NCBI GenBank assembly: GCA_963787255.1
Contig: CAWBCJ010000029.1
Coordinates: 928,001 to 992,000 of the forward strand
Length of the DNA: 64,000 nt
Source: Methanobacteriota archaeon
GTDB lineage: Archaea > Methanobacteriota > Methanobacteria > Methanobacteriales > Methanobacteriaceae
Direction: 5' to 3'
The position numbers and the translations under genes were made by a program. The notes under the pieces were generated by a model. That model worked only from the letters and a program-made list of their open reading frames with translations. It had not been told where the DNA came from and did not search any database. Of this stretch, positions 2,728 to 12,436 are shown in pieces. Positions within the stretch are counted from its first letter, which is position 1. Each line of letters begins with the position of its first letter.

Positions 2728-4035
2728 CTAATTATCATCAAATTTCCTTTTATCAATAACCCTTACTGCTTTTCCTTCGCTTCTTGGAAGTGTTTTGGGC
2801 TCAACGAGGTTTACTTTAACCCTTAAACCAATCTCGTTGTGTATGTAATCCTCTATATTTCTTTTTATGCCCACTAATTCTTTTACCTCATCAGAGAAAA
2901 GTTCTGGAGAAGCTTCAACTTGAACTTCCATCACGTCAAGGTGCTGAGGTCGGGTTACAATAATTTGGTAGTGTGGTTCAAGACCTTCAATCTTTAAAAG
3001 AGCTTTTTCAATCTGTGATGGGAAAACAGCGACTCCTCTAATTTTTAACATATCATCTGTTCGCCCAGTGATACGATCCATCTTAATTAAGGTTCTTCCA
3101 CAATTACATTTTTCTTTTCTTAAGGCAGTAATATCTTTGGTACGGAATCGAATAATAGGCATACCGTGTCTGGTTAAAGTGGTTAAAACAAGCTCTCCTT
3201 TTTCACCTTCAGGCTTTGTTTCCAATGTTTTGGAATCAATTATTTCAGGATAGAAATGATCTTCCATAACGTGCAATCCTTCCTGTTCCCTACATTCAAG
3301 CGCAACTCCCGGGCCCATTATCTCGGTTAAGCCATAAATATTATAAGCGGGTGCGTTAAACCTTTTTTCAATTTCCTGGCGCATTTCTTTAGTCCACATT
3401 TCTGCTCCAAAACCAACAGCTTTTAGGTTTAACTCTGCTGTGTCCAAACCTTCTTCTTCTGCAACTTCAGCTAAATAAAGCCCGTAAGATGGCGTAACAA
3501 TAACGATACTTGTATCAAAATCCTTCATTATCTCGATTTGTCGTTTTGTCTGGCCAGTGGAAATTGGAATTACTGTTGCCCCTATATTTTGAGCACCGTA
3601 ATGAACTCCAAAACCGCCTGTAAAAAGACCATAACCGTGTGTATTTTGAATAACATCGTCTTCAGTGGCTCCAAACATGGTTAAACCTCTTGCCATGACC
3701 TCACTCCAGATTTCAATGTCTTTTTTAGTGTATCCTGATACAGTAGGTTTTCCTGTAGTTCCAGAAGAAGTGTGGAGTTCTACAATCTCTTTACGGGGAA
3801 CTGCAAACATTCCAAAAGGATAAGCTTCTCTTAAATCATCCTTCGTGGTTAAAGGGAGCTTTTCTATATCGTTTAGGGTATTAATGTCATCTGGTTTGAT
3901 ATTGTTGTCGTCTAACCGTCTTCTGTAAAATGGAACATTTTCATATGCTCTTTTTACAACTTCCTGTAATCTTTTAAGCTGTAATTCTTCTTTTTTATCT
4001 TCTTCCATGCATTCTGCTTCTTTATTCCAGATCAT
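2728..4035 (-). CDS. paaK: Phenylacetate (aryl acid)-CoA ligase
   Basis: [25 protein letters not shown] and [12 protein letters not shown] motifs; SD supports the MIWN start. Confidence 0.92.
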
Positions 4036-7307: not shown

Positions 7308-9341
7308 ATGGAATCAAACAGCATATTTTCACTTAAAGAGTCAGAATATCTCCAAATATTTGAAAATATGGAAGAAGAAATCCATGTTCACGATTTAGAA
7401 CGTGATAAAAAGGGTGAAATTGTAGATCTTATTTTTAAATATATAAATCCGGCATCAACGTTAAATTCGATTATTTCAAGGGATAAAATCATTGGTAAAA
7501 AAGCTTCAGAAATATATAAATCTCCTAATTTGATTGAAAGCGATTTAAAGATAGCTAACGAAGTTGTTTCTAATAATGAAAATAGAAAATTTGAAACTTA
7601 CTTCCCGCATATGGATAAATATTATTTAATCTCAGCATTTTCAATAAATGGACTTTATGTAACTCTTGGAATGGATATTACAAATCAAAAAGAAGCAGAA
7701 GAGAAGATTAAGATACATGCAGACATTTTATCTCAGGTTAAAGATGCAGTAATTGCAGTGGATAATGAAAACCGTATAACATACTGGAATAAAGGTGCGG
7801 AAGACCTCTTTGGTTATAAATTAGATGAAATAAAAGATAAAAAATTTGTAAATACTGTAAATTACCGCTGGCTTACTCCAGAAGATAGGAAAAATGCTTA
7901 TAATCAACTTAAAACCATTGGAAAATGGCATGGGGAGAATTTAAGCACTAGAAAGGATAATAAGGAGATATATATAGAATCTTCAATCAATGCTTTTAAA
8001 GATGACAAGGGAAATTACATGGGAACGGTTTCAATAATACATGACGTCACTGAACCTACTAAAATTAAAAAAGCACTTGAAGAAAATTATAGAAGACTTC
8101 AGGAAGCGCAGCGAATAGGAAAAATTGGAAACTGGGAATGGAACATTAAATCTAATATAATAACATTATCAGATGGTTTATACAGAATTTACGGCATTGA
8201 TCCAGGTGAATTTGTAAAATATGAAACCATACTTGACATGGTAATTCCAGAAGACCAGCAGATAGTAAATGATACTCTTGAAAAAGCTCTTAGAGAACAT
8301 AAACCATTTAAATACGATGTTACAATACGCCGTAAGGATGGAAACTTCAGTGAAATTTCATGTAGTGGTGAAGTGGTCACAGACTTTGCTGGACATCCTC
8401 TTAAAATCGTTTGCGTGGAACAGGACATTACGGAACGTAAAGAAATTGAATACGCACTATGGGAAGCGAAAAATAAACTTGAATCAACTGTTGCAAGACG
8501 TACAAGGGAACTAAATCAGACCAACATTCTTCTTGAAAATGAACTTGAGGAAAGAACAATCGCTGAAGATAAGCTTAAAGAAAGTGAAATAGAGCTTAAA
8601 ACAATGGTTGGAGAATTAAAACGTTCCAATGAGGAACTGCAGCAATTTGCCTACATTACAAGCCATGACCTACAGGAACCGCTTAGAACAATTTCGAGCT
8701 TCACACAACTTCTTGAACGTCGTTATAAAGATCAAATGGATTCTAACGCCGATGAATTTATTGAATATATTGTTGATGCAACTCAAAGGATGCAAGATCT
8801 AATTAAAGACCTTCTTGAATATTCAAGGGTTACTACACGGGGAAAGGAATTTAAATTAGTTAACACCGAAGAAATTCTTCAAAATACCATTTCCAATTTA
8901 CATGCTGCTATTGAAGAAAGCGAGGCTGAAGTTTCCTACGAAAAGCTTCCTAAAATAATGGCCGATGAGGGGCAAATGGGCCAATTATTCCAGAATTTAA
9001 TTTCAAACGCTATTAAATTCAAAAAGCCCGATATTTCGCCTAAAATACACATTTCTGCACGTAAGGATGAAGAAAATAACGAATATATTTTCAATGTTTC
9101 TGATAATGGAATTGGAATAGAAAAGCAGTATTTTGACCGGATTTTTACCATATTCCAAAGATTGCACACACGGGAAGAATATGCAGGTACGGGAATAGGA
9201 CTTTCAATTAGTAAAAAAATAGTTGAACGCCACGGAGGGCGAATTTGGGTGGAATCAGAGCCAGGGATTGGTTCTACATTTTACTTTACGATAAATATCT
9301 TACCAAAAATGAGTAAAATTTCTAAAGAAAGTAAAGATTGA
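7308..9341 (+). CDS. Cytoplasmic multi-PAS/PAC sensor histidine kinase (orphan)
   Basis: PAS/PAC signatures (ITYWNKGAE, GNWEWNI, DITERK), H-box SHDLQEPLR, NLISNAIKF, DNGIGI, GTGIGL; no TM segments. Confidence 0.92.
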   Translation: MESNSIFSLKESEYLQIFENMEEEIHVHDLERDKKGEIVDLIFKYINPASTLNSIISRDKIIGKKASEIYKSPNLIESDLKIANEVVSNNENRKFETYFPHMDKYYLISAFSINGLYVTLGMDITNQKEAEEKIKIHADILSQVKDAVIAVDNENRITYWNKGAEDLFGYKLDEIKDKKFVNTVNYRWLTPEDRKNAYNQLKTIGKWHGENLSTRKDNKEIYIESSINAFKDDKGNYMGTVSIIHDVTEPTKIKKALEENYRRLQEAQRIGKIGNWEWNIKSNIITLSDGLYRIYGIDPGEFVKYETILDMVIPEDQQIVNDTLEKALREHKPFKYDVTIRRKDGNFSEISCSGEVVTDFAGHPLKIVCVEQDITERKEIEYALWEAKNKLESTVARRTRELNQTNILLENELEERTIAEDKLKESEIELKTMVGELKRSNEELQQFAYITSHDLQEPLRTISSFTQLLERRYKDQMDSNADEFIEYIVDATQRMQDLIKDLLEYSRVTTRGKEFKLVNTEEILQNTISNLHAAIEESEAEVSYEKLPKIMADEGQMGQLFQNLISNAIKFKKPDISPKIHISARKDEENNEYIFNVSDNGIGIEKQYFDRIFTIFQRLHTREEYAGTGIGLSISKKIVERHGGRIWVESEPGIGSTFYFTINILPKMSKISKESKD

Positions 9342-9457
9342 GTAAGGTCGTTTTCTTAGATTTGATTAGTATATTATTAAAAATGATTGTTATTAGGTTT
9401 TATTTATAAAAAAAAGAAAAAATTGAATAATTTAATGAATATAAATTTAAAATAAGC

Positions 9458-9550
9458 TTATTCTGCATCCATCATTTCGCCGTGCTCGATTTCTATTTGA
9501 CAGCCTTTAGGGCCGCAGCAGAAGTGCTGTAAGTCTAATTGTACTTGCAT
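9458..9550 (-). CDS. Small Cys-rich peptide, 30 aa: MQVQLDLQHFCCGPKGCQIEIEHGEMMDAE
   Basis: Read manually (below the ORF-track cutoff): GAGGTGA SD just upstream of the ATG, TAA stop, locally higher GC than flanks, oligo-T tract downstream on the minus strand. Confidence 0.75.
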   Translation of the reverse strand: MQVQLDLQHFCCGPKGCQIEIEHGEMMDAE

Positions 9551-9566
9551 TTTTTCACCTCATCAT

Positions 9567-9619
9567 ACTATTGTATAACTAGTAATATATACTTAATGGT
9601 TAGTGAAATATACAATACT
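9567..9619. promoter_or_regulatory. Divergent promoter region with three related 11-mers (putative operator)
   Basis: ACTATTGTATA (9567-9577), AGTAATATATA (9581-9591) and inverted AGTATTGTATA (9609-9619); first and third share a perfect 9-bp inverted repeat TATTGTATA/TATACAATA. Confidence 0.5.
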
Positions 9620-9689
9620 TCTATATAATAATAACTTTTGAGGTCTTGATGGAAACCTTTATTATGAAAAATCACAATAAATTAACACA

Positions 9690-10445
9690 ATGTTAAATGA
9701 GGCTGAAATTTACAGTAAAGAGATGGATGAAATTAAAACAAAACTTGCAACCATCCACAGGGATATAAAAAATCTCATGGAAAACACCAATCAACAATAT
9801 CTTGATTTAATACTTTCAAACTCAAAAAAAGACTTTATCAACGCATTAAATGGCTATATTAGTCAGGACATCCAAAATGGTCTTGAAAAAGGAATGATAG
9901 ACAAGTGCGAAACGAAAGAAGAATGTAAACAAGTATTTTCATCATTCTTACTCAAAAATGCAGGCCTTATAAACCATGATAAAATCCCTGAAGAAACATT
10001 AATGGAAAATAAGGCAGAATTTAACAAAATTAAAGATGAAGCGCCGTACCAAAAGTGTGAAATTTGCTTTGAAGAAGCAAATAACCTTTTTGAAAAACAG
10101 CTAAGTTTAATGCGTTCTATGTGTATTTATAGCACTTCTGAAGAGAAAAAGCAGGATATATGCTCAATTTGCGAAGAAACCATGGTTAAGGACGTGCTTG
10201 AACCATTATCCAACAAACAAAGGCTTCAAATTTTAAAGGCCATGTCCAGTGAAACAAGAACTTTCTCTGCCCTATCTGAAATAACTAGCCTAAAAGGCGG
10301 TAATCTACTTTTTCATCTTCAAAAACTGCTTGATAGAGATATAATTATCCAACGCCACGAAAGAGGCGATTATATGCTAACTGACAAAGGATACAAACTA
10401 CTGGTAGTTTTAAGCGAAGTTTATGTACTTCTAGATGGAAAATAA
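9690..10445 (+). CDS. ArsR-like regulator with C-terminal winged HTH and Cys-rich N-terminal domain
   Basis: LEPLSNKQRLQIL, GGNLLFHLQKL, YMLTDKG wHTH; CETKEEC, CEIC and CSIC clusters; TTTATTA box about 25 nt upstream suggests a leaderless transcript. Confidence 0.85.
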   Translation: MLNEAEIYSKEMDEIKTKLATIHRDIKNLMENTNQQYLDLILSNSKKDFINALNGYISQDIQNGLEKGMIDKCETKEECKQVFSSFLLKNAGLINHDKIPEETLMENKAEFNKIKDEAPYQKCEICFEEANNLFEKQLSLMRSMCIYSTSEEKKQDICSICEETMVKDVLEPLSNKQRLQILKAMSSETRTFSALSEITSLKGGNLLFHLQKLLDRDIIIQRHERGDYMLTDKGYKLLVVLSEVYVLLDGK

Positions 10446-10467: not shown

Positions 10468-11139
10468 TTAAAGGCCATTATTTGCAGTAAAAAGGGCAGA
10501 TTTATACAAATTTTCCCTAACATCTGGTACAATTCCTTCTAAAAATGTTAAAAAATCCTCAGGAGTCTCATAATTTTGATTCAATTCCTCATGAGGTTTA
10601 TTTTCAATCCATGAGCATATCCATGCCTTTGGAATGTTTATCAGTGGATAAATCATTTTTTTGTCATCAAAAAGCTCAATAGAGCTTAATAACTCGATTT
10701 TTTCTCCACTCATCATTGAATTAATAATATTCCCCGTCTCATGGTCAAGTGTAAGTGCTAATGCAATTGAATCGATATTTAAACCCATTGATTCGCTAAT
10801 AGCGTTACCAAAAACAAGTTTAATCCCATACTTTCGTTGATATGGTTCTAAAATTACATGAAGCGCAAAATTAAGGGGATCATCATTTTTAACCAAAAAA
10901 ATTTTCTCTTTAGGGCGAATGCTGTGTGCTAGATTTCTTGAAGCCCTTGTGCAGATTTTCTGAAATATCTTCGACCGCACCACTTCCATTTCAGGATAAA
11001 CATTCAAAAATACCCATTCCTTTTTCCTTGAAAATCTGGAAAACTTTAAATTATTTATAAATATCTTATTTTCCATTATGCTTACAAATCTTGTGTCTAC
11101 ACCCGTTTTTTGTAAAAATTTGACCAGATCTCTGTCCAT
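10468..11139 (-). CDS. Conserved hypothetical protein, degenerate TtcA/PP-loop-like
   Basis: IALALTLDHE and IYPLINIP resemble TtcA/Ctu motifs; no SGGxDS or CxxC. Confidence 0.5.
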   Translation of the reverse strand: MDRDLVKFLQKTGVDTRFVSIMENKIFINNLKFSRFSRKKEWVFLNVYPEMEVVRSKIFQKICTRASRNLAHSIRPKEKIFLVKNDDPLNFALHVILEPYQRKYGIKLVFGNAISESMGLNIDSIALALTLDHETGNIINSMMSGEKIELLSSIELFDDKKMIYPLINIPKAWICSWIENKPHEELNQNYETPEDFLTFLEGIVPDVRENLYKSALFTANNGL

Positions 11140-11506: not shown

Positions 11507-12436
11507 ATGCTTAAATTGTTCGGTAAGAAATCAAAAGAAAAAGAGAGGGATATTCTGGAGTTAGATATTTCAGAACCGGTTGATTGTCTTTGTGATTTTA
11601 CATATAATTTTTACTGGCAGCATAAAGGGGAAAAACTCCAGCCAGAATGGAAAATTTCAGGAAATGAAATTACTTTTAAGGATCTAGTGGAACATCTTAA
11701 AAAAGGCGGTTCAGTAAAAATAAAGGGCAATATAGGGCACCGCTTATGCTCCAGCATGGGTGTAGATATAAAATATTTCGGCGGAAGCGGTAAAGAAACC
11801 GACGTTGGAGATGTAATTGTTGATGGTGACGTAGATACTCGAATGGGAATAAGCATGGTCAAAGGGAGTATCTATGTTAAAGGAAAGGTTAAAGAGCCTT
11901 TTGGAAATTTAGTTGAAGTTAAATCAGATATGAAAAACTATAAAAAGTTTAAGTCTATAACTGACCTTGTAATGAATGGTCTTAATGGAGAAAAACTGAA
12001 AGGAAGTCAAATAACAGTTAATGGCATTTTCATAAACGATGGGGTTGTTAGAGATACTGTAGGCTCCAGGCTGGATAAAGAAGCGGAAATAATTGTAAAT
12101 GGAAATGTTGATTTAAGTACAGGGATTTTAATGCGAAAGGGTACTGTAAGGGTCAATGGTAACGCTGGTAAAAACACAGGAGCTTTATTAAACGGTGGAA
12201 CAGTTGTTATAAATGGTAAATGTGATGATTTTACAGGTATAGATATGATTAAAGGCACAATAATTGTAAACGGAAATGCAGGGAAGTTCCTAGTCGCTAA
12301 TAAAAAGAGTGGAGTTGTTTTTTCTAGAAATGGAAGTCCAATACCTCCGGCAAGTGAAAAAGATCTCTTAAGTGAAGATAGTGCAATGCTTGTTAAATTT
12401 GGATTCAATCCAAGGGAATTTAAAAAATTTGAGTAA
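11507..12436 (+). CDS. GXGXG beta-helix protein (FwdC / glutamate synthase C-terminal-like)
   Basis: Repeated V/IxGxAG and GxxMxxGxI turns in two modules. Confidence 0.8.

Follow-up and report, generated by a model that had tools for sequence, protein, structure and literature searches.

A conserved 30-residue cysteine-rich protein encoded opposite a four-cysteine winged-helix regulator in Methanobacteriaceae, with a possible role in redox stress

The 64-kb stretch of Methanobacteriota DNA analysed here (contig CAWBCJ010000029.1, positions 928,001 to 992,000; called the window below) holds, at 9458-9550 on the minus strand, an open reading frame (ORF) for a small cysteine-rich protein that faces away from a gene for a cysteine-bearing regulator. 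The ORF runs from ATG (9548-9550) to TAA (9458-9460) and its translation is MQVQLDLQHFCCGPKGCQIEIEHGEMMDAE, 30 residues. The start codon is fixed because an in-frame stop sits three codons upstream, and no longer ORF in the window overlaps it. A Shine-Dalgarno (SD)-like GAGGTGA (9555-9561, minus strand) stands four bases ahead of the ATG, preceded by a TATA-like box, TTAAGTATATA, which occupies 9587-9597 as the reverse complement and lies about 39 nt ahead of the same codon. An oligo-T tract of the form T6-C-T8 (9408-9422, minus strand), resembling an archaeal terminator, is found 36 nt past the stop. The next gene is convergent and encodes a histidine kinase with PAS, HisKA and HATPase domains in Pfam (7308-9341, plus strand). 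The regulator, of 251 residues, is encoded at 9690-10445 on the plus strand. An initial annotation made from the letters alone had described the small ORF with these residues, its SD, promoter-like box and T tract and its convergence with the 3′ end of the kinase gene, and all of these are present.

Relatives of the small ORF were sought through the regulator, for which 509 relatives were found at E <= 1e-3 (21 were aligned). Eighty genomic loci were fetched in this way, making 81 sources with the window. A motif scan combined with tblastn showed an intact frame of 30-31 residues in 19 of the 80 loci, and in all 19 it lies upstream of the regulator on the opposite strand. Substitutions were analysed in 19 sequences, L021 being dropped for its Ns. 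None of the 19 has a stop in the coding frame; among the other five frames only one is stop-free in any of them (11 of 19). The columns that vary number 14, 8 and 26 of 30 at codon positions 1, 2 and 3, with identities of 0.86, 0.94 and 0.66, and the pooled pS of 0.629 and pN of 0.094 give a pN/pS of 0.150. Mean pairwise identity is 0.82 in the coding sequence versus 0.31 and 0.39 in the 60-nt flanks, and 16 of the 20 copies have a GGTGA no more than 14 nt from the start. The region has no match in Rfam and its predicted mRNA fold is not better than that of shuffles (z = +0.69), and on these grounds a reading of the ORF as a non-coding RNA was rejected. Change biased to third positions, the low pN/pS, the conserved SD and the lack of an RNA signal therefore indicate constraint on the protein, and identify the ORF as a genuine conserved protein-coding gene rather than a chance frame. 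The open frame in relatives, the synonymous-biased substitution and the synteny with the regulator that the initial annotation had proposed as tests were thus all found. Of the stops that it had named as a contrary sign, none occurs in the coding frame of the 19 sequences compared, and one does occur in a further locus. In L022 (3330-3395, minus strand) a decayed copy lies between genes for a PNPOx-like and an MTH865-like protein; it has a TAA at codon 3, is degenerate after Cys-Cys-Gly and shows what lost constraint looks like.

That the region is instead untranslated, as non-coding RNA or regulatory DNA, or is the relic of a larger gene such as thiC, is barely credible. A local likeness of the product to the cluster loop of ThiC favours a relic, but the ThiC match has E = 2 and a profile search of 1.84 billion representative proteins found no larger protein with the motif. 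Translation is in turn indicated by the bias of substitution, the fixed ORF length, the conserved SD and the absence of an Rfam match or an unusual RNA fold.

The peptide has no match in Pfam or NCBIfam at E <= 0.1. The profile of the 19 peptides, searched against the representative proteins of all lengths, gave 15 matches at E <= 1e-3, of which 14 are the same peptide called at 29-75 residues with spurious N- or C-terminal extensions. The fifteenth, a 209-residue repeat protein (E = 6.7e-4), was regarded as a chance match. A word-index search with a 47-residue database form of the peptide returned 42 clusters at 90% identity, named just "hypothetical protein" or "putative protein", the latter from Methanothermobacter wolfeii. 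The family comprises cytoplasmic proteins of 30-31 residues from genomes of the Methanobacterium type and from Methanothermobacter. Two Methanothermobacter peptides, P0148 and P0152 (31 residues), were seen on 27 and 37 contigs of up to 1.69 Mb, one source being M. wolfeii. No paper on the motif CCGPKGC was found in a literature search, most subscription journals lying outside its reach.

Conservation was counted over 61 distinct sequences of 29-33 residues. Leu7 is present in all 61, His9, Cys11, Cys12, Gly13, Pro14, Gly16 and Glu20 in 60 each, Tyr23 in 58, Asp28 in 57 and Cys17 in 55. The copy in the window is unusual in having Leu5 and His23. A sub-family (P0170, P0171, P0172 and P0130) reads CCGP[EG]GA, with Ala for the third Cys and Glu or Gly for Lys15; P0129 and P0169 have Glu15 and keep the third Cys. 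Replacement of a ligand is a possible account of the Ala-for-Cys sub-family. On either side of C-C-G-P-K-G-C, positions 3, 5, 7 and 10 and positions 19, 21 and 23 carry hydrophobic residues in alternation. Such a pattern suggests an amphipathic beta-hairpin that would carry a cluster of His and Cys at its tip.

The initial annotation had also taken the gene for a stand-alone unit and not for a leader peptide, and this is supported by the layout of the copies. In 15 of the 20 copies at least five consecutive Ts occur in the 50 nt after the stop, and the gene that comes next in the window is convergent. The five copies that have no T run are operon-type loci in which the MTH865 gene starts about 50 nt downstream. 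The mRNA would have a short SD-bearing leader, beginning just 5′ of the SD, and the gene is best described as a stand-alone small-protein gene with its own putative promoter and T-tract end. These features bear on a further alternative, namely that the ORF encodes the precursor of a ribosomally synthesised and post-translationally modified peptide (RiPP) or of a cofactor, or that it is an upstream ORF (uORF) rich in Cys codons which attenuates the genes behind it. Either role would suit a small Cys-rich product in which Glu-x-x-Tyr is almost invariant. In mycobacteria, leaderless short polycysteine ORFs are described as attenuators that respond to Cys (bioRxiv 10.1101/834739), and five of the loci studied here have the ORF as part of an operon, ahead of MTH865. 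Yet no gene for a radical-SAM protein, YcaO, a cyclodehydratase, a protease or an exporter occurs in the 20 loci, and the Tyr of Glu-x-x-Tyr is His in the window. Against attenuation, conservation extends along the whole peptide and not over the Cys codons alone, the T tract mostly follows the ORF, and in the window the convergent orientation of the next gene leaves nothing to attenuate. Both roles are highly improbable.

A 14-nt string, GAAATGATGGATGC, is common to the 3′ end of the peptide gene (...G-E-M-M-D-A-E; window 9461-9480, minus strand) and to the 5′ ends of PNPOx-like genes (M-V-M-T-E-E-M-M-D-A..., as in L004 at about 3810-3839, minus strand). It could be chance, a common short motif or the trace of a rearrangement.

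The divergent regulator has an N-terminal domain of about 165 residues followed by a winged helix-turn-helix (HTH) at residues 168-237, in line with the C-terminal one noted in the initial annotation. Residues 168-237 score above the Pfam cut-offs for DUF7347, HTH_20 and HTH_5, the last two over residues 173-220 with 27.1 bits (cut-off 27) and 24.7 bits (cut-off 22), and the best match in the PDB for residues 162-244 is NolR (E = 0.0064). The NCBIfam metalloregulator model NF033788 gives 24.9, below its cut-off of 55. The designation as an ArsR-like regulator thus holds for the HTH and fails for the protein as a whole, which is only loosely ArsR-like. No paper describing DUF7347 was found in the literature search, with the same limit on subscription journals. 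The N-terminal 165 residues have no relative in Pfam, and in the PDB nothing better than E = 1.6. The three Cys pairs noted at the outset are present in the window copy (C73x5C79, C123x2C126 and C158x2C161). C73, C79, C123 and C126, all sited outside the HTH, are found in 81 of 81 regulators; the third pair is poorly kept, with C158 in 6 and C161 in 14 of the 81. A regulator with four invariant Cys is plausibly a thiol- or cluster-based sensor. The family spans Methanobacteriaceae, Methanoperedens, ANME-2 and Methanosarcinaceae at about 50% identity, and tblastn found no paralogue in the window. HdrR is unrelated and has its HTH at the N-terminus.

In alignments of the whole family, from Methanobacterium to Methanoperedens, the divergent control region of about 100 nt ahead of the regulator is conserved, whichever gene lies on its other side. 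The intergenic region measures 139 bp in the window, where three blocks can be told apart. Box A, on the target side (9587-9613, plus strand), reads ATATACTTAATGGTTAGTGAAATATAC; its left end, taken on the minus strand, forms the TATA-like TTAAGTATATA that precedes the peptide gene. The middle block, Box B (9620-9633), is AT-rich and TATA-like. Box C, on the regulator side (9634-9665), is an imperfect inverted repeat (ACTTTTGAGGTC...) followed by GAAACCTTTATTAT, which is likely the transcription factor B recognition element and TATA box of the regulator gene. In the family-wide alignment the inverted repeat is followed by GAAACCTTTATTA, and AAACCTTT is found in 63 of the 81 regulator upstream regions. 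The distance from GAAACC-TTTATTA to the ATG of the regulator, judged by eye in the window (9652-9692), L004, L016, L017 and L060, is 31-33 nt and includes no SD, which suggests a leaderless regulator mRNA. In L001 (1180-1300), whose regulator is the closest to that of the window at 82% identity, the regulator-side box is intact, and unrelated sequence stands in place of Box A and the peptide gene.

Box A was searched for as a degenerate pattern with at most 2 mismatches, an nhmmer model built from 14 rows, mostly of Methanoperedens, having failed to match the window. The pattern has one match in the 64-kb window and none in 100 shuffles. It occurs at the same place in 70 of the 80 loci, a count that is circular because the pattern was derived from the same loci, and independent support comes only from its uniqueness in the window and from extra copies. 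These lie away from the regulator, 36-63 nt upstream of other cargo genes: MTH865-like genes in L007, L037, L040 and L029, an ORF for a Cys-rich protein of 54-57 residues in L027 and L039, flavodoxin-like genes in L062, L063, L065 and L069, and an FMN-reductase-like gene in L072. From this placing, Box A is the candidate binding site of the regulator.

The genes downstream of Box A were classified by Pfam family in the 81 sources. The slot is taken by an MTH865-like gene alone in 18, by a PNPOx-like gene alone in 10, by the peptide alone in 8 and by an FMN reductase gene alone in 4. Ten sources have the series 52-residue protein, MTH865, CMD/AhpD-like protein and FMN reductase; PNPOx, peptide and MTH865 follow one another in 6 (one of them with the decayed copy, L022), the peptide and MTH865 in 4, and PNPOx and MTH865 in 4. 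Other combinations occur in 7 sources, the contig ends in 2, and Box A was not found in 8, two of which (L014 and L039) do hold the peptide. In three loci a nitroreductase gene comes after FMN reductase, and MTH865 matches PDB 1iio at E = 9.6e-31. MTH865 is reported to be highly expressed on Methanoperedens plasmids, its function being called unknown (PMC9674854). No gene for MTH865, PNPOx, FMN reductase, CMD or nitroreductase was found in the window by tblastn.

The two-gene module proposed in the initial annotation is therefore borne out in part. The divergent pair is conserved with its synteny, but the module is not closed, since 60 of the 80 regulator loci are without the peptide and other cargo stands in the slot. 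The peptide is confined to Methanobacteriaceae on the regulator tree, where its presence needs 7 changes versus a mean of 18 for shuffled labels (none of 500 as low). The neighbours across the 20 peptide loci include a histidine kinase, RFC, an ABC-class ATPase, PNPOx, MTH865 and a 54-residue protein. On the far side of the peptide a histidine kinase, the RFC large subunit or an ABC-class ATPase is encoded, depending on the locus, and only the link to the regulator is conserved.

Other neighbours of the regulator do not depend on the peptide. Beyond the regulator gene the window encodes a protein of 223 residues (10468-11139, minus strand) that belongs to no Pfam or NCBIfam family, and then a protein of 309 residues with a GXGXG motif (11507-12436, plus strand). 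Relatives of the two adjoin the regulator in 17 and 12 loci, whether the peptide is present or not. Locus L012, on contig JAAYUW010000106.1 of a metagenome-assembled genome labelled Exilispira (Spirochaetota), has a regulator/PNPOx locus nearly identical to that of Methanobacteriota L010, with branch lengths of about 0.01, and this contig is probably mis-binned.

The slot also holds a second micro-protein, of 51-57 residues, with an invariant C27, C30 and H33 and a near-invariant C37 (Cys-x2-Cys-x2-His-x3-Cys). Its gene (L063:3701-3853, minus strand, for example) comes directly after Box A, and usually it precedes MTH865. It is found in 16 loci of the Methanoperedens/Methanosarcinales clade (L030, L060, L062, L063, L065, L066, L067, L069-L072, L074, L075, L077, L078 and L080), and Methanobacterium versions occur at L027:3082-3255 and L039:3188-3352. 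The distance from Box A is 36-40 nt, as for the peptide in the window, except in L027, where it was counted from the regulator-proximal Box A and not from the gene's own copy. This protein has no Pfam or NCBIfam family and its database name is just "hypothetical". Homology to the 30-residue peptide was rejected (hhalign probability 0.4%, E = 0.17).

The repeated company of MTH865 raises the question of whether the peptide serves the MTH865-like protein as an obligate small subunit or adaptor, the two forming a shared metal or redox centre. The His and Cys ligands of the peptide would complement the single invariant Cys of MTH865-like proteins (30 of 30 sequences), and the copy in the window would serve an MTH865 whose gene lies at another place in the genome. 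Of the 21 sources that contain the peptide or its remnant, 10 have a co-directional MTH865-like gene behind it, and the 52-residue Cys3His protein of Methanoperedens is immediately upstream of MTH865 in 13 of its 17 loci. However, 10 of the 20 intact peptide copies have no MTH865 within 1.5 kb and the window has none at all, MTH865 stands alone beside the regulator in 18 loci, and where a T tract follows the peptide MTH865 has its own Box A promoter. An obligate partnership is for these reasons rather doubtful.

A different partner would be the regulator itself, the only neighbour that the peptide has in every locus. The peptide would then be a co-sensor or anti-regulator that docks on the Cys4 N-terminal domain and closes a feedback loop. 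In the Methanoperedens clade another small Cys3His protein fills the slot at the same spacing from Box A, and two small Cys proteins in one slot make a recurring theme beside the regulator. Yet in 44 of the 81 sources the stretch examined contains neither of the small proteins, so the regulator needs none in cis, and the two proteins are without detectable homology. Such a role is quite unlikely. A bolder proposal joins these threads. The 30-residue His-x-Cys-Cys-x4-Cys and the 52-residue Cys3His proteins share the promoter-proximal slot of what would be one ancient regulon of methanogens and methane-oxidising archaea, and both are typically just upstream of MTH865; they could be unrelated but interchangeable Cys3His adaptors that build an intermolecular metal or Fe-S centre with the MTH865 Cys or with the Cys4 domain of the regulator. 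This is unlikely, but if true it would reveal a split redox sensor or a repair factor of a kind not known before, and would give MTH865, a protein of solved structure and no function, its first functional context.

The chemistry of the motif also invites comparison with soft-metal binding. The peptide would then chaperone or buffer a soft metal or metalloid, for instance As(III), Cu(I), Cd or Hg, through a site like that of ArsD and under the control of an ArsR-type repressor. ArsD has about 120 residues and a thioredoxin fold, and its gene lies in ars operons. The Cys-Cys-x4-Cys spacing of the peptide equals that of ArsD Cys12/Cys13/Cys18, a vicinal pair with a third Cys after four residues and an N-terminal beta-strand, in the peptide a putative one, before it, and the HTH of the regulator matches ArsR-type models. 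But there is no ars context: the 20 loci contain no ars, cop, mer or efflux gene, and their cargo consists of flavoproteins and peroxidase-like proteins. The profile search gave neither ArsD nor another metallochaperone, no homology between the two proteins was found, the third Cys is missing in 6 of 61 peptides, and the regulator lies below the NCBIfam metalloregulator cut-off. A metalloid binder is accordingly very unlikely.

The cargo itself points to a response to oxidants or redox-active stress. MTH865-like proteins, PNPOx/F420-type flavoproteins, proteins resembling FMN reductases or iron-sulfur flavoproteins, AhpD-like CMD proteins, flavodoxin-like proteins and nitroreductases recur in the slot, and the redox theme put forward in the initial annotation fits these other genes. 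The peptide is probably a small stress protein rather than the product of a chance frame, and the explanation that stands at slightly better than even is that it is a redox-stress micro-protein, a member of the regulator's regulon that works through its His/vicinal-Cys/Cys loop. It is rated so because the cargo is typical of defence against oxidants or redox-active compounds and because the four-Cys regulator is a plausible sensor. Under this reading as a redox-stress micro-protein, the Cys4 domain of the regulator would change state by thiol oxidation or by loss of a bound metal or cluster, and the switched regulator would alter transcription from Box A. The peptide, as one of several interchangeable cargo genes governed by the divergent regulator, would be transcribed from its own promoter inside the divergent control region. 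It would fold as an amphipathic beta-hairpin with strands at residues 2-10 and 18-24, and the tip loop H9-x-C11-C12-G-P-K-G-C17 would be the working part, either chelating a metal or Fe-S cluster or cycling between thiol and disulfide. It would probably act with a larger partner, for example the MTH865-like protein whose gene often follows.

Several points weigh against a redox-stress micro-protein. The case for a redox regulon is built on Pfam names given to the genes nearby, and the putative hairpin is deduced solely from how the residues alternate. The peptide shows no homology to any metal- or redox-protein family in Pfam or NCBIfam; a PDB profile search with it returned only the Fe-S loop of ThiC, which is not significant, and the best Atlas score, 0.77 for the M. 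wolfeii homologue, is below lead level. Its third Cys, found in 55 of 61 sequences, is not universal. Many lineages can dispense with the peptide, to judge from the loci that are without it and the decayed copy in L022, and L001, with the closest regulator, has lost the target side of the control region. To these comes the circular count for Box A.

The sensing and survival of oxidants in methanogens and anaerobic methane oxidisers is poorly understood, and among methanogen redox regulators the literature search found MsvR alone. The system described here offers three handles on the problem. The first is a conserved, nameless family of micro-proteins with an unusual His/vicinal-Cys loop, and another case of the genes of about 30 codons that annotation often overlooks or leaves nameless. 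The second is a regulator of wide distribution whose winged helix is C-terminal and whose four Cys are invariant. The third is a common putative promoter/operator module, found from Methanobacterium to Methanoperedens, which would mark out a regulon of MTH865, flavoproteins and AhpD-like proteins. Since the peptide is also present in Methanothermobacter, which serves as a laboratory model, tests are practical.

Among known regulators, the ArsR/SmtB family comes closest in the HTH, with scores above the HTH_5 and HTH_20 cut-offs and NolR as the best structural match. Its members are compact proteins of about 100-120 residues with metal sites inside the HTH domain. In contrast, the protein described here has 251 residues, its Cys at 73-126 lie outside the HTH, it falls short of the metalloregulator model, and no metal-resistance gene was found in the regulon among the 81 sources. 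MsvR has an N-terminal winged HTH and a C-terminal V4R domain, whereas here the winged HTH is C-terminal, after the Cys4 domain, and no V4R match was found in Pfam at E <= 0.1. The cargo of MTH865, PNPOx, FMN reductase, AhpD-like and small Cys proteins is also unlike that of MsvR. The likeness lies in the arrangement. MsvR is methanogen-specific, binds DNA in a Cys-dependent manner and is divergent from oxidant-defence genes in Methanothermobacter and Methanosarcina (PMC3729527). The system studied here likewise pairs a methanogen regulator of presumably Cys-dependent DNA binding with divergent genes of the oxidant-defence type across a common intergenic control region. The Msr regulators of Methanosarcina, to whose size and C-terminal HTH layout the initial annotation had likened the regulator, combine an HTH with DUF1724 (bioRxiv 10.1101/2021.03.04.434021). 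That likeness did not hold, and the regulator is not of the Msr type because it has no DUF1724 match in Pfam at E <= 0.1.

For the peptide, the nearest local likeness is to the [4Fe-4S] loop of ThiC (PDB 4s25/4n7q), HFC..CGPKGCeiEi versus HFCsmCGPKFCSMKI at a non-significant E = 2; ThiC has CX2CX4C where the peptide has CCX4C, and it was not among the matches of the profile search. Proteins of the desulforedoxin/rubredoxin type are beta-hairpin proteins of about 36 residues from anaerobes, linked to oxygen defence and with four Cys ligands, and desulforedoxin uses a vicinal Cys pair. The peptide is a similarly tiny putative hairpin with vicinal Cys, but offers His and three Cys, or His and two Cys in the sub-family, and matches none of the desulforedoxin/rubredoxin, ArsD or metallothionein models of Pfam and NCBIfam at E <= 0.1. 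MtrI of Methanosarcina mazei, with well below 100 residues, is linked to oxygen stress and acts by binding a larger protein (PMC12774963). The peptide has no sequence relation to MtrI and belongs to another lineage, the Methanobacteriaceae, but both are small proteins of methanogens tied, in the present case presumptively, to oxygen stress.

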